Source: Deferribacterales bacterium (GTDB taxonomy: Bacteria; Chrysiogenota; Deferribacteres; Deferribacterales; Geovibrionaceae). Taken from it: a stretch of 30,872 nt of DNA. The notes below the pieces were generated by a model. It searched no databases. It had not been told where the DNA came from and saw only the letters and a program-made list of their open reading frames with translations. This document shows positions 1 to 30,279 of the stretch, piece by piece. The stretch spans positions 1 to 30,872 of the forward strand of contig JBFWJG010000032.1 of assembly GCA_050253335.1 (NCBI GenBank), given 5' to 3'. Position 1 is the first letter of the stretch. Every line of letters starts with the position of its first letter. The position numbers and the translations under genes are program-made.

Positions 1-9
1 TTTGCCCAT
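1..9 (-). CDS. 5' end (M-G-K) of a gene that runs off the window edge; product unknown
   Basis: Minus strand reads AAGGAG (23-18), then ATG GGC AAA at 9-1. Confidence 0.55.
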
Positions 10-33
10 CTCTATATCTCCTTGTTTTATATC

Positions 34-125
34 GGCGAACCTACGTCCTGTGGTTCGCCTGAAACCGCTCGCGCCGTGGTAAACACGGCTTCGCTCCGCA
101 CGGCGCAAGTCCTTCCATGGACTTG
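34..125 (-). repeat. Dispersed GGA-hairpin repeat, copy 1 (short form)
   Basis: 42-nt core (66-107) identical to 9227-9268; flanked on the minus strand by hairpins CAAGTCC-ATGGAA-GGACTTG and GGCGAACC-AC-AGGAC-GT-a-GGTTCGCC. Confidence 0.9.
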
Positions 126-240
126 TTTAAGCAGCGGTGAGAATGCTATTTCAAGATACATAAGAATAAAACCTGAATGAACAAATGTAAAGGATAATGT
201 TTGGTTTTGCTTAAATTTGTTTAGCGATGTTGGAACCCGT

Positions 241-9176: not shown

Positions 9177-9195
9177 GGAAGGTTAATCAGCCCTA

Positions 9196-9286
9196 CAATC
9201 AGAACATCCTGTCTGATTGCAAGGCACGCTCGCGCCGTGGTAAACACGGCTTCGCTCCGCACGGCGCAGTCCCATCCATGGGACTG
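9196..9286 (-). repeat. Dispersed GGA-hairpin repeat, copy 2 (short form)
   Basis: Core identical to copy 1; minus-strand hairpins CAGTCCC-ATGGAT-GGGACTG and CAATCAG-AC-AGGAT-GT-t-CTGATTG. Confidence 0.9.
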
Positions 9287-9291
9287 TGGTT

Positions 9292-9347
9292 GAAAAAGTA
9301 GTCCGCAAGGCGCCATGCCCGTGTTTACGGTGAGACCTGAGAAGTAA
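9292..9347 (+). pseudogene. Orphan second copy of the usp 3' end (EKVVRKAPC[P]VFTVRPEK*)
   Basis: Aligns to 9120-9176 with 10 substitutions, all synonymous, plus a 1-nt deletion. Confidence 0.88.
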
Positions 9348-9367
9348 GGGAAAACTGCCTATATTAA

Positions 9368-9450
9368 AGAGATTCTTCGCTGACGCTCAGAATGACGAAG
9401 CCGCAGTCAAACGCAGTAAGTCATTCTGAGGCCTTGGCCGAAGAATCTCT
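9368..9450. repeat. Inverted pair of REP-like palindromes (GTCATTCTGAG..GAAGAATCTC family); probable bidirectional terminator between convergent genes
   Basis: AGAGATTCTTCG..CTCAGAATGAC (9368-9396) faces GTCATTCTGAG..CGAAGAATCTCT (9420-9450); relatives at 21248 and 21493. Confidence 0.85.
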
Positions 9451-9464
9451 CTGTATGATAATAC

Positions 9465-10067
9465 CTAGTGAGCCTGCTCTATCTCCGCCGAATCCAGAAT
9501 CCTTTCCGTGAATTCCTCAAGCCTGTCATCATTTCCGTCAAAACTCACGGCAATATGACGGAGAAGCTTCCCGCCGGAAACGCTCAGAGCCTCAACCCTT
9601 ATCTTCCGCCCTCCGGCATCCGCAGTGCCTGAAAGCCGCCAGCCTGAATAGCCGCTGATCTTCTCCGGCTTAATTTCATACTCAAAAGAGGACGCCGCGC
9701 CAGAACCCTTTATCTTGTTAACCAGATCCTGAGAGAAGGCCTCGCCGTTCAGCTCCTGTTCTGTCTCAATCGAAAGCACTGTGAACCCGAATGTTCCGAG
9801 GGAAAACTGCCACACATCCTGAGCAGCGGCGTTGTCCGCTATCACTGCCGCTTGAGAGAGATCCCTCATTTTATCAGGGGCAAGTATCTTCACGCCTGTT
9901 CTGCCCACTTCCCGTTTTTCCCAGTTCTGTTCCAGAACCACGCCGGTTATTCCCTTTTCCGCCTTGGCCGACTTTTTGTAATATTTAAATGCCGCGGTTC
10001 CCGCGAATACGGCAAGAACCACCGCCGCTGCGATAACCACTGTTTTGATCATTCCGTTCAAAATCAT
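9465..10067 (-). CDS. Hypothetical membrane-anchored exported protein
   Basis: 200-aa ORF, N-terminal hydrophobic helix, SD GGAGGG; possibly a PsbP/DcrB-like fold (weak inference). Confidence 0.7.
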   Translation of the reverse strand: MILNGMIKTVVIAAAVVLAVFAGTAAFKYYKKSAKAEKGITGVVLEQNWEKREVGRTGVKILAPDKMRDLSQAAVIADNAAAQDVWQFSLGTFGFTVLSIETEQELNGEAFSQDLVNKIKGSGAASSFEYEIKPEKISGYSGWRLSGTADAGGRKIRVEALSVSGGKLLRHIAVSFDGNDDRLEEFTERILDSAEIEQAH

Positions 10068-10166: not shown

Positions 10167-10179
10167 TGCAAACTTTATA

Positions 10180-10274
10180 CTTATCAAGAGTGGTGGAGGG
10201 ACAGGCCCGTTGAAACCACAGCAACCGCCCTTTGAGGAAAGGTGCTAATTCCTGCCCTGAATGGGGGAGATAAG
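10180..10274 (+). ncRNA. SAM-I (S-box) riboswitch aptamer
   Basis: P1 CTTATC/GATAAG, AAGAG..GGAGGGACAGGCCC..GAAACC..GCAACC, GGTGCTAATTCC; upstream of metY-metX. Confidence 0.96.
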
Positions 10275-10296
10275 AACCGTTAAGAACAGCTCTAAC

Positions 10297-10346: not shown

Positions 10347-11633
10347 ATGAGCAGGCACCGCATCGAAACAATAGCAGTCCACGGCGGACAGACACCTGAC
10401 CCGGTTACGGGAGCCAGAGCCGTTCCCATATATCAGACAACCGCATACAAGTTCCGTGATGCGGATCATGCAGCAAAGCTGTTTGACCTTGAGGAGGCAG
10501 GCTACATCTACACCCGCCTGAACAACCCCACCGTCGAGGTGCTGGAAAACAGGATTGCCATGCTTGAGGGGGGAACAGGAGCCGTTGCCGCTTCTTCCGG
10601 CCAGTTTGCCGAGTTCATGGTTTTCTCCACCATAGCAGAAGCCGGAGACGAAATAATCACCACCAACAGGCTTTACGGCGGAACAAACAACCTTTTCTTT
10701 CACACTTTCAAAAAGATGGGGATCACCTTCCGCCCATTTGACCAGAATAATCCGGAGGAGATCAAAGGGCTTATAAATGAAAAAACCAAGGCGGTTTACC
10801 TTGAGACAGTGGCTAACCCCGGAAACGACATAGCAGACTTTGAGGCGATAGCCGCAATAGCCCATGAAAACGGCCTGCCCCTCGTTATAGACAATACATA
10901 CCCGACACCCTTCCTCTGCCGTCCCAAGGAGTTCGGAGCGGATGTGGTTATCCACTCCGTAACCAAGTTCCTCGGCGGACACGGAAACTCAATGGGCGGC
11001 ATAGCCGTTGACCTCGGCACGTTCGACTGGGCAAAGAGCGGGCGCTTTCCCTCATTCACCACCCCTGATCCCAGCTACCACGGCATGGTGTATTCTGAGC
11101 GCTTCGGCAACATGGCTCTTGCGGTCAAGATGCGGGTGCAGACAATGCGGGACATAGGCGGCTGCATGAGCCCCATGAACGCCTTTCTCCTTCTTCAGGG
11201 GCTGGAGACTCTGCATGTGCGCATGGAGAGGCATGTGGAAAATGCCCGCAAGCTCGCCGCCTATTTACAGAAAAGCGACATGGTGGACTGGGTGAACTTC
11301 CCTGAACTTGAAGGAAACCCCAACTGCGAAAGAGCCAAAAAATATATGCCCAAAGGAACAGGGGCAATGCTCAGCTTCGGCATCAAGGGCGGTCTGAAAG
11401 CAGGCAGAGCCTTCATAGAGGGCGTTGAGCTTGCCACCCACCTCACCAATCTGGGCGACACCAGAACTCTGGTCACTCACCCCGCAAGCACAACTCACCG
11501 CCAGCTTAATGCGGAGCAGAAGGCGAAAGCGGGCATAACGGACGGGCTTATCCGCCTCTCCGTGGGCATAGAGCACATAGACGACATAACAGCCGATATG
11601 GAACAGGCATTCGCGAAAGCTAAGAAGGCATAA
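10347..11633 (+). CDS. metY: O-acetylhomoserine sulfhydrylase
   Basis: AVPIYQT, YIYTRLNNPT, PLP-lysine HSVTKFLGGHG, NLGDTRTLVTHPASTTH, IRLSVGIE. Confidence 0.94.
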   Translation: MSRHRIETIAVHGGQTPDPVTGARAVPIYQTTAYKFRDADHAAKLFDLEEAGYIYTRLNNPTVEVLENRIAMLEGGTGAVAASSGQFAEFMVFSTIAEAGDEIITTNRLYGGTNNLFFHTFKKMGITFRPFDQNNPEEIKGLINEKTKAVYLETVANPGNDIADFEAIAAIAHENGLPLVIDNTYPTPFLCRPKEFGADVVIHSVTKFLGGHGNSMGGIAVDLGTFDWAKSGRFPSFTTPDPSYHGMVYSERFGNMALAVKMRVQTMRDIGGCMSPMNAFLLLQGLETLHVRMERHVENARKLAAYLQKSDMVDWVNFPELEGNPNCERAKKYMPKGTGAMLSFGIKGGLKAGRAFIEGVELATHLTNLGDTRTLVTHPASTTHRQLNAEQKAKAGITDGLIRLSVGIEHIDDITADMEQAFAKAKKA

Positions 11634-13478: not shown

Positions 13479-15272
13479 GTGTTTAAATTCAGGCTGAAGG
13501 AATTCAATCTGCCCGTCATAGGCAGATGGTTCATACTGGGCTCCCTTGTGGGCATTGTGGCCGGTCTGGGTGCAATCCTCTTCTTCCTCCTGCTTCAGGG
13601 CTGTTCCTACATTTTTCTTGACTATATCGGCGGCATGAGAGTTGAGGAAACAGCGGGGGAACCGGCCTTCTTTGGCCATGCCGCAACCCCTTTCAACAGA
13701 TGGATTGTCCTTTTTCTTCCCGCTCTGGGCGGACTGATCAGCGGTTTTCTTGTTTATAAGTTCGCACCGGAAGCCGAAGGGCACGGAACAGACGCGGCAA
13801 TCAAGGCTATTCACCACAAAAACGGCTATATAAAGTGGAATGTTCCCGTCATAAAAACCATCGCAAGCTCCATAACCATAGGTACAGGAGGCTCCGGAGG
13901 ACGTGAAGGCCCCATAGCGCAGATAGGCGCAGGCTTCGGCTCATTCCTCGGGCGCGTGATGAACCTGACTGACAGGGAAAAACGCATCCTCACCGCCGCA
14001 GGAATGGGCGCGGGCGTGGGCGCTATATTCCGTTCCCCTCTTGCGGGAGCAATTTTCGCCGCGGAAGTGCTCTACAGCAGTTCGGACATGGAGTTTGAGG
14101 TTCTTCTGCCCTCTACAATAACCTCAATAATCGCTTACTCAATTTTCTGCTCGTTCTTCGGCTGGGATCCCCTGTTTGCGACTCCGGGCTTCCGGTTTGA
14201 CAGCCCGCTGGAACTGGCCGGATATACCGTTCTCGGCTTCGCCTGCGCTTTCTTCGGCTGGCTGTATGTCAACACCTTCTACAGGATTCACGACTTCTTT
14301 AAGGCGATGAAGCTTTCCCCCTATCTCAAACCCGCTCTCGGCGGTCTGCTCACGGGGATAATCGGCTTTTGGCTGCCGGAGGCGATAGGCGGCGGATACG
14401 CCAATATAGAACTTGCCATGAATGTTCATTTAAGCATTCTTTTCCTGTTCGTACTTATATTCGCCAAGATACTGACAACATCATTCAGCATAGGCAGCGG
14501 CGGTAGCGCAGGCATATTCGGGCCTTCAATGGTGATCGGGGCTTCCGTCGGCGGGTTTATCGGCCTGGCGCTTAACATGACCGTTCCCGCCATTGCCCCC
14601 GAGCCTGGAGCATATGTTGTTGTGGGGATGGCGGGCTTTTTCGCTGGGATAGCAAGCGCCCCTCTCTCCACAATAATCATGGTGAGCGAAATGACAGGAA
14701 ACTACCACCTGCTTGTTCCCTCCATGTGGGTGAGCACGCTTACCTTCCTTCTGCTCCGCAGAACCACAATGTACCGCAGTCAGGTCGAATTCCGCAGTGA
14801 TTCACCAATACACAAAGGCGAGTTCTTCCTTCAGGTTCTTCAGGACATCAGGGTAAAGGACATCATGCGTCCCGACCCGATCGTCATCAGAGAGGATATG
14901 AAGTTCAGCGAAATAGTCCACTTCATATCCGCCACCAAGCACAACAACTTCCCCGTTGTGAGGGAAAACGGCGAGCTTGTGGGCGTTCTCCTGTTTGAGG
15001 AAATACGGGAGTTCGTGTTTGAGGAAGGGCTGGAGAGCATCGTAGTTGCCGGCGAGGTCTGCGAGAAGGACATACCGGTGATCAAGCCCTCCCATAATCT
15101 GGCGGATGCAATAGAGATGATAGGCTTCAAGAATATTGAACTTCTCCCCGTGGTTGACACCGACAAGGACAATATCCTCATCGGCATCATTACCCGCAGG
15201 GACATCATATCCACATACAACAAGGTGCTCCGCAAGCGCAAATCAGAGAACGAGATGGAGGCGGACTTCTAG
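13479..15272 (+). CDS. ClC-family chloride channel/antiporter with two CBS domains
   Basis: GHGTD, GGSGGREGP (gating Glu), GGSAGIFGP, many TM helices, C-terminal CBS pair. Confidence 0.94.
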   Translation: MFKFRLKEFNLPVIGRWFILGSLVGIVAGLGAILFFLLLQGCSYIFLDYIGGMRVEETAGEPAFFGHAATPFNRWIVLFLPALGGLISGFLVYKFAPEAEGHGTDAAIKAIHHKNGYIKWNVPVIKTIASSITIGTGGSGGREGPIAQIGAGFGSFLGRVMNLTDREKRILTAAGMGAGVGAIFRSPLAGAIFAAEVLYSSSDMEFEVLLPSTITSIIAYSIFCSFFGWDPLFATPGFRFDSPLELAGYTVLGFACAFFGWLYVNTFYRIHDFFKAMKLSPYLKPALGGLLTGIIGFWLPEAIGGGYANIELAMNVHLSILFLFVLIFAKILTTSFSIGSGGSAGIFGPSMVIGASVGGFIGLALNMTVPAIAPEPGAYVVVGMAGFFAGIASAPLSTIIMVSEMTGNYHLLVPSMWVSTLTFLLLRRTTMYRSQVEFRSDSPIHKGEFFLQVLQDIRVKDIMRPDPIVIREDMKFSEIVHFISATKHNNFPVVRENGELVGVLLFEEIREFVFEEGLESIVVAGEVCEKDIPVIKPSHNLADAIEMIGFKNIELLPVVDTDKDNILIGIITRRDIISTYNKVLRKRKSENEMEADF

Positions 15273-15583
15273 CCCGCTATCTTCAGCCCCGCTATCCCCG
15301 CCGCAATCAGCAGAACGGATAAACCCCTGACAAGGGTGAGCAGCTCGCCCATAAAAATCACCCCGCAGATGAAAATGCCCGTTGCCCCTATCCCTGTCCA
15401 GACGGCATAAGCCGTGCCCATGGGGAGAGTCTTCATTGAATATGACAGAAGGTAAAAGCTTACGAACATTGCGGCGATTGTGATAACTGACGGAAGCGGT
15501 TTTGAAAAGCCCTGACTGTATTTAAGCCCCAGAGCCCAGATGATTTCGAATAGTCCTGCGATGAAAAGGAGAGTCCACGCCAT
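15269..15583 (-). CDS. gdx: SMR-family guanidinium exporter Gdx (SugE)
   Basis: MAW..L.IAGLFEIIWA.GLKYSQGF, LPMGTAYAVWTGIG; guanidine riboswitch upstream. Confidence 0.92.
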   Translation of the reverse strand: MAWTLLFIAGLFEIIWALGLKYSQGFSKPLPSVITIAAMFVSFYLLSYSMKTLPMGTAYAVWTGIGATGIFICGVIFMGELLTLVRGLSVLLIAAGIAGLKIAG

Positions 15584-15605
15584 TTTAAGCCTCGTTTAAA
15601 AAAAC

Positions 15606-15648
15606 GGGGCCGTCCCCTGATGTAACCGAGAGGTGAGGCCGTCCTCAC
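15606..15648 (-). ncRNA. Guanidine-II (mini-ykkC) riboswitch
   Basis: Two ACGR-loop hairpins on the minus strand, GTGAGG-ACGG-CCTCAC and GGGG-ACGG-CCCC, 15-nt linker, just upstream of the gdx SD. Confidence 0.9.
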
Positions 15649-21247: not shown

Positions 21248-21274
21248 GGGATTCTTCGCTGCGCTCAGAATGAC
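21248..21274. repeat. REP-like palindrome (GATTCTTCGCTGCGCTCAGAATGAC)
   Basis: Near-identical to 9369-9396. Confidence 0.85.
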
Positions 21275-21279
21275 GCAGG

Positions 21280-21750
21280 CAGCTCCATGGACGGAGTTGC
21301 GCCGTGCGTGATTCAGGCACTCAGGCACAGGGATGTGCCCGTGGAGTGCGTACCGGAGCGAATGCGAGGAACGCAAGCGCAACCAGAGCAGCAAGCAGTT
21401 TTACTGCGCAGGCTGTGAGTGAGAAGAAACTGCAGGACGCAGGTTTCTGCTCACTATGGCAAGATAGATGTTCTCTTTTCTGTGGTAAGACAGAGATTGC
21501 TTCACCCCTGCGGAGTTCGCAATGACGTATACAACTCCATGGACGGAGTTGCGCCGTGAGTGATTCAGGCACTCAGGCACAGGGATGTGCCCGTGGAGCG
21601 CGTACCGCAGCGAACGCGAGGAACGCAAGCGCAACCAGAGCAGCAAGCAGTTTTACTGCGCAGGCTGTGAGTGAGAAGAAACTGCAGGACGCAGGTTTCT
21701 GCGAACTATGGCAAGACAGATGTACCCTTTTCTGCGGCAAGACGGATTGA
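21280..21750 (+). repeat. Two tandem units (period 252 bp) of the long-form GGA-hairpin repeat, each with a ~45-nt codon-like tail
   Basis: 21283-21450 vs 21535-21702 differ at only 4 positions; each unit has hairpin loops ATGGAC, AGGGAT and AGGAC. Confidence 0.92.
21493..21526. repeat. REP-like palindrome variant (GAGATTGCTTC..CGCAATGAC) between the tandem units
   Basis: Same GAGATT...AATGAC termini as the 9368 and 21248 elements. Confidence 0.7.
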
Positions 21751-25650: not shown

Positions 25651-25687
25651 CAACCCCATGGAAGGGGTTGCGCCGTGCGGAGCGAAG
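25651..25687 (+). repeat. Dispersed GGA-hairpin repeat, copy 5 (truncated)
   Basis: CAACCCC-ATGGAA-GGGGTTG followed by CGCCGTGCGGAGCGAAG, as in copies 1 and 2. Confidence 0.85.
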
Positions 25688-28804: not shown

Positions 28805-29825
28805 AAAAATCCTCCCTGTCTTCATCCCCTTTGCGGGATGCCGTAACAGGTGTGTCTACTGCAATCAGCATAAAATAACCGGAACGGGCGGCAGCGGTCT
28901 CATTGAAAACGCGTCCCGCCAGATCGAAGAATACCTCACATACTCAGATACATGGGACGAGCTTGCCTTTTACGGCGGCAGTTTTACCTGCCTTCCGGAA
29001 AAAGACAGAACATCCCTTTACTCCATGGCGCACTCAAAAGGTTTCCGCACTCTCCGTTTTTCCACAAGTCCCGACTGTGTGGGGAAAGATGTTCTGGACG
29101 AGGCGGAATCATGGGGGGTGCGCACAGTTGAGCTTGGCGTTCAGTCGCTCTCGGATGAGGTTCTGCGGCTGAATAAACGCCCCTATGACTCTGAAGAGTG
29201 CATTCAGGCGGTCAGGGCAGTTCAGGAACGGTTCATCACAGGCGTGCAGATGATGACGGGGATGTACGGCGAGACGGCAGAGGATGTTATCCGCACCGCG
29301 GACGCTCTAGCCGCCGTGAAGCCCGCATACGCCCGCATCTACCCCACGGTTGTTCTGGCGGATACCGAGCTTGCGGATTTATTTTCATCAGGCGGATACA
29401 CTCCCCCCGAACCCGCAGAGATGCTTCTCCGCACGGCGTATGCATACGCCGCCCTCACTTCCGCAGGAACAAATGTCATCCGCACAGGCCTGCAATATAC
29501 GGACAGTCTTGAAAATTCCATAAAAGGCGGATTTTACCATCCGGCGTTCGGGGATATTGTAAAAACGCTTATAATACTGATATACTTACATAATCACGGT
29601 GAAATACGCGCAGGCGGAACGGAGATACAGAAACTCTGCGGCTACAAGGCGCTTGCAAGAAAACATTTCCCTGATAAAATCATTACCGACGAAGGTTCAT
29701 CAGCGGATTTCCGTGAGATCTGCATGAAGGCAAAGGAGAATATTTTTGAGAATAACGGCAGGAACCCTGAAAGGAATGCAGCTTCATACGCCGAAGAACT
29801 CATCCGTCAGACCCACGACGGATAA
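28788..29825 (+). CDS. Radical SAM protein (Elp3/YhcC-like, no KAT domain)
   Basis: PVFIP..GCRNRCVYCNQ..ITG, AFYGGSFT, VELGVQS, RIYPT.V...T.L, YHPAFG. Confidence 0.9.
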   Translation: MHTSHKKILPVFIPFAGCRNRCVYCNQHKITGTGGSGLIENASRQIEEYLTYSDTWDELAFYGGSFTCLPEKDRTSLYSMAHSKGFRTLRFSTSPDCVGKDVLDEAESWGVRTVELGVQSLSDEVLRLNKRPYDSEECIQAVRAVQERFITGVQMMTGMYGETAEDVIRTADALAAVKPAYARIYPTVVLADTELADLFSSGGYTPPEPAEMLLRTAYAYAALTSAGTNVIRTGLQYTDSLENSIKGGFYHPAFGDIVKTLIILIYLHNHGEIRAGGTEIQKLCGYKALARKHFPDKIITDEGSSADFREICMKAKENIFENNGRNPERNAASYAEELIRQTHDG

Positions 29826-30279
29826 GGTAAGGCAGGCTGTCTTCTCTTCCCTCTTTGACGAAACCGAAGGGGCGGAAGTGCTTGATCTCTGCGCCGGGAC
29901 GGGTGCTTTCGGCTTCGAAGCCCTCAGCAGAGGCGCCGCGTCCGCAGTTCTCATTGACCTTTCAACGGACATTATCAAAAAAAACGCCCTCGCCCTCAGC
30001 CTGAACCCGCGCATAATCAAAGGCGATATCAGAAAAGAGATTCCAAGGCTTAATAAAGCCTTTGACATAATATTCATAGACCCCCCATACGGCCTTTTCG
30101 ACCCGCAGGAAATAATGAGCCTGATACACGAAAACGGCATACTGAAGCCTGATGGAACACTTATCTTTGAGGAAAGCACCCGCACTGCTTTCCCTGCGGA
30201 GCCTGAGCACTTCAAGGTTCTGAAGGAAAAGAAGTACGGTGAAACAGCAATATACTACTTAAAACGGATGCAGATATGA
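29746..30279 (+). CDS. rsmD: 16S rRNA m2G966 methyltransferase
   Basis: MRITAG..KG, RPTTDKVR, LDLCAGTG..G.EALSRGA, FIDPPY, KKYG; SD AAGGAG plus TTG. Confidence 0.94.
   Translation: MRITAGTLKGMQLHTPKNSSVRPTTDKVRQAVFSSLFDETEGAEVLDLCAGTGAFGFEALSRGAASAVLIDLSTDIIKKNALALSLNPRIIKGDIRKEIPRLNKAFDIIFIDPPYGLFDPQEIMSLIHENGILKPDGTLIFEESTRTAFPAEPEHFKVLKEKKYGETAIYYLKRMQI

Follow-up and report, generated by a model that had tools for sequence, protein, structure and literature searches.

A dispersed GGA-hairpin repeat of Deferribacterales whose gene-end duplications typically join at GA

The window analysed here is a stretch of 30,872 nt from a Deferribacterales bacterium (GCA_050253335.1, contig JBFWJG010000032.1, positions 1 to 30,872), which corresponds to contig C32 of the genome we call G000 (2.58 Mb in 142 contigs). 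It contains five copies of a dispersed repeat whose outer hairpins present GGA in their loops, and this repeat is the subject of the present study. An earlier note, made from the letters of the window alone, had described each copy as opening with a 7-bp hairpin followed by CGCCGTG. All five opening hairpins are present together with this motif (Table 1), and 0/100 shuffles gave any match; the 11 C-A(N)GGAN-G hairpins that the note had counted were likewise found in place and with the stems it had given. However, only two of its 'four full copies' are full elements (copies 1 and 2), whereas copies 3 and 4 are chimeras and copy 5 is a 5′ fragment. The extra hairpin of what it had called long copies is real, but these copies are the chimeras, in which the opening hairpin is joined to an element of a second subfamily (type B). 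Type B differs in the core, while the outer GGA hairpins and the tail are shared. Its 3′ core yields 18 matches in G000, one of them by chance, and the subfamily occurs in contigs C8, C15, C21, C23, C32, C41, C45, C47, C50 and C121.

Copy 1 lies in front of leuC, a gene identified from the overlapping contig C42 and from the orthologue in G029 (G027, G028 and G029 are congeners of G000, and G029 is a complete genome). The layout reported for this copy was confirmed: the last hairpin ends at position 34 and is followed by the Shine-Dalgarno (SD) sequence and the start codon of leuC. No terminator-like site was found at copy 1. Positions 1-152 of the window overlap the end of C42, which shows an element tail before its first hairpin; the leuC site is therefore probably a two-copy array that collapsed at the assembly break. 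A copy lies within 250 nt at 17/284 contig ends. Copy 2 is flanked by two versions of the end of a Usp-family gene (assigned by similarity below the cut-off), which agree in 49/60 columns. At the site of copy 5, G029 carries the full element and, behind it, the fabD end in duplicate. No Pfam or NCBIfam family was matched by the genes upstream of copies 1 and 2 (241-1080 and 9465-10061, both on the minus strand).

Table 1. Repeat copies and associated features in the window
Feature	Position	Strand	Remark
Opening hairpin + CGCCGTG, five matches	99-119 (-), 9260-9280 (-), 21286-21306, 21538-21558, 25657-25677 (+)		
Copy 1, full type-A element: P1, mini-hairpin CGC(CGT)GCG, tandem-GA stem with P2, P3, tail of 10-12 nt	19-127	-	Model R1, 101.7 bits
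Copy 1, P1 hairpin, ATGGAA hexaloop, C-G closing pair	106-125	-	
Copy 1, conserved core with P2 hairpin; P2 loop without GGA	66-105	-	Covariation
Copy 1, P3 hairpin, AGGAC pentaloop, one 3′ bulge	34-59	-	
leuC SD AAGGAG (23-18) and ATG (9-7)	7-24	-	Same SD in congeners without the element
Copy 2, full type-A element (P1 9267-9286, P3 9190-9225), between convergent genes	9179-9288	-	R1, 112.6 bits; copy 2 itself in the training set
Last 58 nt of Usp-family gene + 2 nt, abutting copy-2 tail ~28 nt after the P3 loop	9119-9178	.	
Decayed direct repeat of the Usp-family gene end, other side of copy 2	9291-9349	.	Present in G027 too
Copy 3, type-A P1 (21279-21300) fused to type-B element (hairpin 21324-21339, P3 21425-21448)	21279-21465	+	
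Copy 4, tandem duplicate of copy 3 (P1 21532-21551, hairpin 21576-21591, P3 21677-21700)	21532-21712	+	237-nt repeat, 91% identical
Copy 5, 5′ fragment (P1 + half core) directly after the fabD stop	25651-25687	+	
Pair of CGTC-type palindromic repeats beside copy 2	9371-9447	.	
CGTC-type repeat directly before copy 3	21249-21274	-	
CGTC-type repeat before copy 4	21495-21526		

The family extends well beyond these five copies. A search for the core pattern with ≤1 mismatch in 68 genomes of the phylum returned 125 matches in G000, 127 in G027, 91 in G028 and 284 in G029; two sister-genus genomes contain 3 matches each and the other 62/68 genomes none. A covariance model trained on 19 copies, with ≤56 candidates scored per genome, matched 29/68 genomes (16/16 of the family and 13/21 of family f7), the matches outside the genus being weak and candidates only. 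A looser catalogue comprises 473 cores: 140 from G000, 237 from G029 (2.4 of 3.0 Mb), 21 from G027 (0.4 Mb) and 75 from other related loci. None of the 473 lies inside a gene as called by our own script. They form 249 loci, including 133 arrays that run head to tail, and only 1/246 element-bearing regions is occupied on both strands. Viral contigs gave 64 matches to the 15-base core motif, none with hairpin context, and 0 matches to the P1-plus-core pattern; in a metagenome scan genuine copies were found in one assembly only, among 80 of at least 121 loci inspected, and BLAST searches of plasmids and phages yielded no match to the element. An Rfam scan of the window returned only SAM and guanidine-II riboswitches, with nothing relevant in positions 1-400 at E ≤ 10. 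A literature search, which was not aimed at GA joints and mostly did not cover subscription journals, found no paper on this family.

The element shows a rigid geometry of ~110 bases. A first hairpin (P1, 7 bp, mostly with a hexaloop) is followed by a 3-bp mini-hairpin and by a 2-bp stem with tandem G-A pairs that carries a second hairpin (P2), the P2 unit measuring 17 nt in 396/427 copies. The third hairpin (P3, ~13 bp with a 3′ bulge) is preceded by TGTA or TGTG in 368/427 copies and is followed by a tail of 10–12 nt. The 427 distinct copies contain 120 versions of the P1 stem, 58 of P2 and 194 of P3, and different stem versions are found even at orthologous sites between congeners. In alignment A1 98.4% of the cells pair and 14/18 pairs change on both sides; in alignment A2 26/31 pairs do so. 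These covariation figures are upper estimates because the rows were chosen for intact, diverse hairpins. The earlier note had assigned G-U wobbles to the GGA strand and A-C mismatches to its complement. We found that the GGA strand of P2 and P3 indeed contains more G-U than A-C, 54:19 (the copies are not independent, and P1 was left out as a fixed-register count caught too few copies), but A-C occurs on this strand too. The GGA strand also folds more stably than its complement in 65/80 copies. The G-U excess and the fold stability fix the strand; RNA and single-stranded DNA are not separated thereby.

Many copies are accompanied by duplicated host DNA. A P3 loop could be recognised in 209 first-in-array copies, of which 103 show a direct repeat between the tail and the upstream flank; 41 of them were dropped as their upstream side is an older element copy, and the remaining 62 represent 49 independent sites. 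In 40/49 of these duplications the 3′ joint lies 20–30 nt after the P3 loop (median 24), a position that coincides with the end of the sequence bias in the tail (near position 25). The upstream partner of the joint is variable and lies 16–113 nt before the core. A control with swapped tails gave 0/286. GA opens the shared stretch at an offset of 0–2 in 28/42 joints located at 17–30 nt (chance 0.22, p = 5.5e-10), and the G of the joint is at position 24-25 in 18/28. There is little microhomology beyond GA, because the shared stretch begins exactly at GA in 19 joints, one base earlier in 5 and two bases earlier in 4. The duplicated DNA, 16–87 nt long, consists mostly of gene ends: the upstream stop codon is inside the duplication in 33/42 cases, and in 27/42 the duplication continues through P1. 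The two duplicates differ at 37/2353 nt (the method favours well-matched stretches), in comparison to 78–96% identity between the genomes, which argues that the duplications arose separately and recently in all four lineages and are younger than the species splits. Within arrays, the joint falls precisely on the P1-loop GA for 5/48 distinct short spacers, and the type-B arrays in C41, C45 and C121 likewise join at the first-loop GA. As the spacer also follows the last copy in only 23/101 arrays, the arrays are for the most part local duplications of [flank + element]. In a few cases a single copy is flanked by a true direct repeat without an element remnant and thus resembles an insertion with a long target duplication (an ilvN-ilvC-type site, a site in C43, L040 and window copy 2). 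A fixed 3′ joint at GA in genomes without a recognisable transposase is the surprising and new part of these observations.

The position of the repeat relative to genes shows a related regularity. Behind a sense gene, 49/141 first copies begin ≤12 nt from the stop codon, 15 of them at exactly 0; before a sense gene, 41/125 last copies have the start codon 32–42 nt after the loop. In 26 of these 41 SD-abutting copies the first GA, usually that of the SD, is found at 25-27, and in copy 1 the GA of the leuC SD (20-19) lies 25-26 nt after the P3 loop. This is nearly the register of the duplication joints, so that the SD-adjacent position may be a by-product of joining at GA. The layout that had been read as typical of translational repression is thus common and may stem from the way the element inserts. 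A target duplication as a universal feature is ruled out, since most SD-abutting copies are without one.

According to the earlier note the GGA strand is always co-oriented with, and downstream of, a gene. This holds for 5/5 copies in the window and as a bias elsewhere, but it is no rule genome-wide: where neighbouring genes run in tandem, the mRNA strand carries the GGA in 37/45 regions of G000 (37 sense vs 8 antisense), 50/64 of G029, 12/16 of G027 and 23/26 of the other related loci. Overall the ratio of sense to antisense is 122:29, about a fifth of the tandem-pair regions being antisense. In G029 it amounts to 38:10 for leading-strand gene pairs and 12:4 for lagging-strand pairs (replichores from GC skew; Fisher p = 0.74). 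In convergent regions the GGA lies on the leading strand in 21/31 cases in G029 (p = 0.07) and in 7/15 in G000 (contig-level estimate). An orientation driven by replication is unsupported in G029 and G000; gene direction dominates, because the sense bias is the same on both replichores, and a weak effect of replication may accompany it. Divergent regions hold only 11/247 occupied sites. The view of a spreading, structured and strand-biased element is borne out, and the GGA strand follows gene direction independently of the replichore.

While the stems differ freely among copies, the GGA of the outer loops is constant. A(N)GGAN loops are found in 286/339 P1 and 300/328 P3 hairpins, and GGA in 0/427 P2 loops. 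Counted over 157 distinct P1 hairpins with intact stems, the loop and its closing pair read C (155), A (153), free N, G (146), G (150), A (155), free X and G (154). Statements on published systems, here and below, refer to the portions of the cited sources that were available. According to the rule established for RsmE, the best binding is obtained with an ANGGAX hexaloop closed by a C-G pair, N is dispensable, and N and X are free (PMC4005645); the C-G-closed A(N)GGAX loops match it, and the recognition of a CsrA/RsmE-type loop code in the earlier note was correct. The intergenic regions of G000 contain 267 C-A(N)GGAN-G hairpins vs 0–30 for eight control trinucleotides, and the loop GGA is predicted to be unpaired at 0.97–1.0. 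The genes csrA and fliW, for which the note had proposed a search in the genome, are both present in G000, with csrA behind fliW and a flagellin-type gene. CsrA of G000 has L4, R6, R44 and N55, residues with assigned roles in CsrA. To judge from sequence, transcribed copies are likely to bind CsrA through the two outer loops. A CsrA hypothesis for such twin-GGA repeats, the sponge idea included, is already in print, for TwoAYGGAY. Pieces of the element were found in four metatranscriptome assemblies of relatives (~90–99% alike; unstranded contigs, one study, small shares), where a high summed depth on repeat bins is expected because many copies collapse. The presence of csrA fails to explain the expansion, since 60/68 genomes of the phylum carry this gene.

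These data bear on the proposal that the repeat is a host-selected, distributed CsrA sponge and a portable translational-control module, in which copies in 3′ and intercistronic UTRs would titrate CsrA and, at copies before an SD, a CsrA dimer would bridge the P3 loop and the ribosome-binding site. The excess of intergenic GGA hairpins with unpaired GGA, the fliW-csrA locus, the sense bias and the spacing of start codons behind last copies all speak for it, as does the spacing in copy 1, where the loop GGA and the SD GGA lie ~24 nt apart, close to the 21 nt in C. jejuni flaA. Model matches are confined to genomes with csrA (csrA present in 29/29 genomes with matches, matches in 0/8 csrA-negative genomes; p = 0.017, kinship ignored), and of 75 orthologous regions in which at least one of G000 and G029 has a full copy, 39 are full in the two genomes, while the other genome shows a trace in 15 and is empty in 21. 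However, these 21 sites also document turnover, and copy 1 is missing before leuC in G027 and G029. Loops are equally intact in antisense (65/71) and sense copies (290/330; p = 0.54), so that the stronger conservation in sense copies was not found. The genes behind 18 SD-abutting copies in G029 are miscellaneous housekeeping genes that share no pathway (among them secE, lexA, cmk, folD, purD, dnaG and a release factor). Furthermore, 31 csrA-positive genomes of the phylum are without any model match, and the copy number among csrA-positive relatives ranges from 0–3 to 284. A sponge or repression module as the reason for the family, which was the main proposal of the earlier note, did not hold up well against these results, and we consider it doubtful. 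At the leuC leader of G027 and G029 a fourth, AT-rich hairpin repeat fills the space (L071:3590-3900, L083:11400-11710); it recurs beside or instead of GGA copies at other sites.

We favour, with a probability of roughly 45%, a non-autonomous element, expanded in this genus, that spreads by single-strand cutting and joining at GA and whose outer loops would bind CsrA when transcribed. The GGA strand would fold while single-stranded, mostly when displaced as the non-template strand during transcription; it would be nicked at the tail GA, ~10–12 nt behind the last hairpin, and the nicked end would be joined to another GA site. If the partner were an upstream GA (in a gene end or in the element's own first loop), tandem [host flank + element] arrays would result, as in the TnpA-REP/BIME model; joining to a GA elsewhere, e.g. 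in an SD sequence, would create an additional copy. The stems could then be shuffled by unequal recombination and by conversion through the conserved core. In IS608 the spacing between hairpin and cut at the right end is ~10 nt. At the ends of IS200/IS605 elements, a hairpin close by determines where the cut is made (PMC6006769), and TnpA-REP cuts single-stranded BIMEs at CT, sometimes far from the hairpin (PMC3333891). In the model for the latter, tandem arrays grow by a single unit per round, through a nick, extension, a further cut and strand transfer (PMC3333891); it predicts that each of the two joints carries a dinucleotide and that the linker varies, which is the pattern observed here for GA. 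Loop retention appears to reflect the ability of intact copies to spread or to convert others, more than host selection of each copy as a regulator.

Several observations weigh against this mechanism. No GA is present at the start of the shared stretch in 14/42 joints, and 39/41 SD-abutting copies keep no upstream duplicate above the null. A tail ending in a conserved GA would give GA microhomology under replication slippage as well, and an RNA role would account for the sense bias just as an R-loop role would. The Y1 transposase family PF01797 is found in 0/4 genus genomes (by eye, its 5 matches in the family are not flanked by the element), and no mobile-looking gene is bracketed by copies, though the duplications are recent in all four lineages. 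The enzyme acting on single-stranded DNA that the earlier note had named as an alternative fits the junctions, but no RAYT/Y1 gene was found in the four genus genomes. The genes with GGA hairpins on both sides (5 in G000, 6 in G029) resemble, by eye, housekeeping or uncharacterised host genes. A Pfam scan (E ≤ 1e-14) of 54/198 neighbouring proteins in G029 detected no transposase and left 18 proteins without a family. The search for PF04986 (Y2) gave matches in 0/16 genomes but was uninformative because no control genome gave a match either. Small GIY-YIG and DUF559 genes were rejected as partners, as they are tied to other repeat families. One array is immediately preceded by a UPF0102 gene (L085:13795-14130, minus strand), which encodes a predicted endonuclease and whose end is duplicated in the array spacer; this is a single adjacency and probably due to chance, as are the single adjacencies of RNase T-like, TatD and bifunctional-nuclease genes to single copies.

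The lack of a transposase or reverse transcriptase common to the genus speaks for the alternative that no dedicated enzyme is involved. The folded nascent strand would slip back or switch template after P3 and re-prime at 2–4 nt of microhomology, and gene conversion through the core would spread and repair copies. Local head-to-tail arrays in which the spacer rarely follows the last copy, and orthologous sites with different stem versions, agree with such a process. Yet in most cases only GA is shared, within a narrow register, and slippage leaves unexplained both the arrival at new sites and the coincidence of the joint with the natural 3′ end, where the tail bias ends; we regard this explanation as unlikely. 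It is less probable still that the GGA loops serve a mobilising or other DNA-binding protein to which unpaired GA is shown, their likeness to CsrA sites being incidental. Joints at the P1-loop GA in type-A and type-B arrays and the intactness of loops whatever their orientation agree with this idea; the optional N, the free X, the invariant flanking A and the closing C-G pair, however, reproduce the published RsmE rule, and the family is so far confined to csrA-positive genomes. RNA-mediated, SINE-like copying of a transcript, possibly CsrA-chaperoned and reverse-transcribed from a GA nick with a long variable target duplication, would suit the fixed 3′ end, the variable 5′ partner, the sense bias, the G-U excess and the few single copies with a true direct repeat, but it is very improbable given that the reverse transcriptase family PF00078 was found in 1/4 genus genomes (not in G000, G027 or the complete G029) and that the duplications running through P1 resemble local duplications of an existing copy.

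The favoured mechanism can be extended to a scenario that we put forward as speculation and think rather unlikely as a whole. A transposase-free element, copied by a host GA-joining enzyme, would prefer to land right behind stop codons and on the GA of SD sequences, and would thereby install high-affinity CsrA sites ~24 nt before the ribosome-binding sites of dozens of genes, in addition to 250–350 sponge sites. The FliW-CsrA flagellar switch would become a genome-wide regulon in one genus, and TD-2 and TwoAYGGAY would belong to the same self-amplifying class of CsrA-docking elements. The family offers a testable signature in any case: a fixed 3′ GA joint, variable upstream partners and dozens of recent events, with no Y1 and mostly no reverse transcriptase. 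If a host enzyme is responsible, gene ends would be duplicated and repeats seeded by a route not yet described. Should CsrA bind, a repeat would have delivered hundreds of sites to a bacterium whose CsrA is of the FliW type, and regulon rewiring by a mobile element would become testable, with the leuC leader, present with and without a copy in congeners, as a direct test case.

Other features of these genomes were noticed alongside the repeat. The window contains a SAM-I riboswitch (10178-10276, plus strand, 88.3 bits, cut-off 44.4) upstream of an operon starting at 10347, a guanidine-II riboswitch (15605-15648, minus strand, 36.2 bits, cut-off 32) upstream of a 104-aa open reading frame (ORF) at 15269-15583, and an ORF at 29784-30279 (plus strand) that was left out by the gene caller of our script and looks methyltransferase-like by sequence impression. 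In G027 and G029, DUF559 genes are surrounded by long arrays of a third repeat family, which consists of G/C-run hairpins (L115, L116); this family is present in G000 too, where no DUF559 match was found. CGTC-type repeats yield 121 regex matches in G000, occupy 26/67 of its element-bearing intergenic regions, and occur at L106, L111, L112 and L113 too. At L113 a diverged GGA-hairpin element of the sister genus lies upstream of a GIY-YIG gene and is flanked by a duplicate of the upstream gene end.

Among known systems, the NTS/CGTC repeats with Ssn GIY-YIG nucleases (PMC11893778, PMC3733652) combine a hairpin repeat with a small site-specific nuclease for single-stranded DNA. The CGTC repeats found here are a separate family: in relatives they flank small GIY-YIG genes (95–105 aa) in an Ssn-like layout, whereas the GGA element does not bracket those genes, and no small GIY-YIG gene was found in G000, G028 or G029. 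REP/BIME sequences with TnpA-REP (PMC3333891, PMC6006769) resemble our element as intergenic hairpin repeats in locus-specific tandem arrays with variable linkers that are rare between divergent genes, and the joining at a dinucleotide suggested by the GA joints would be a further likeness. However, the dinucleotide is GA and not CT, there is no GTAG guide and no inverted REP pair, and the unit comprises 110 nt with three hairpins. A non-autonomous IS200/IS605 derivative was rejected since flank duplications are common and the orientation follows genes on both replichores, and a MITE with terminal inverted repeats because the ends of A1 and A2 are not complementary and the duplications, at 16–87 nt, are not short and fixed like a MITE target duplication. 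The BRE of Betaproteobacteria (PMC3110155) is likewise a ~90-bp intergenic repeat in variable tandem arrays that is not replication-oriented; it has ≤29 copies, the available text of that paper mentions neither GGA loops nor gene-end duplication, and the two are set apart by description only. CsrB/RsmY/RsmZ and the C. jejuni flaA leader (PMC4005645, PMC4894983) present the same A(N)GGAX loops in a mix of hexaloops and pentaloops, and in the FliW-type system an mRNA can titrate CsrA (PMC4894983). In contrast to CsrB/RsmY/RsmZ, each a single stand-alone gene, the repeat provides two loops per unit in hundreds of units within or behind mRNAs.

The closest relatives are two motifs with twin GGA loops. 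TwoAYGGAY (RF01731), also tabulated in PMC2864571, has been proposed to bind CsrA (PMC4333381); it shows strong copy-number variation as well as repeats of 100–200 nt and REP arrays downstream at a fixed position, and a spread like that of a mobile element has been suggested, while the mode of spread of TwoAYGGAY/TD-2-like repeats and its link to Csr regulation were left unresolved in that work (bioRxiv 10.64898/2026.09.22.753630). Our element shares with it the two GGA loops and repeats at a fixed downstream position (the joints 20–30 nt after the P3 loop). Unlike TwoAYGGAY, the consensus and the folds contain no common basal stem, with P1 and P3 ~40 nt apart across the core with P2, and we found head-to-tail arrays instead of divergent doublets; upstream arrays of 5–6-mers were not noticed, though no search was aimed at them. 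Membership was rejected, as the best score was 22.4 bits vs 43, at a locus that is not a full copy. TD-2 (RF03162) is nearer in architecture: it likewise has three serial hairpins with outer AYGGAY-type loops (AUGGAU and ACGGAU in the Rfam consensus), a middle hairpin flanked by GA-type bases and a dispersed multi-copy distribution. It counts 36 copies in T. denticola and no function has been described, while the available text of PMC1950547 mentions neither CsrA nor GA joints. One G000 copy aligns over all 98 positions of the TD-2 model, but its score, the best obtained, is 33.8 bits and fails the gathering cut-off of 48.7, and the window copies gave no match to the model at E ≤ 1. Unlike TD-2, our repeat has other linker sequence, a bulged P3, common AGGAN pentaloops and 3–8 times more copies, and it lives in Deferribacterales, whereas TD-2 is restricted to Treponema denticola, a member of another phylum. 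The repeat is thus a real, structured and uncatalogued family of the TD-2/TwoAYGGAY-like twin-GGA kind.

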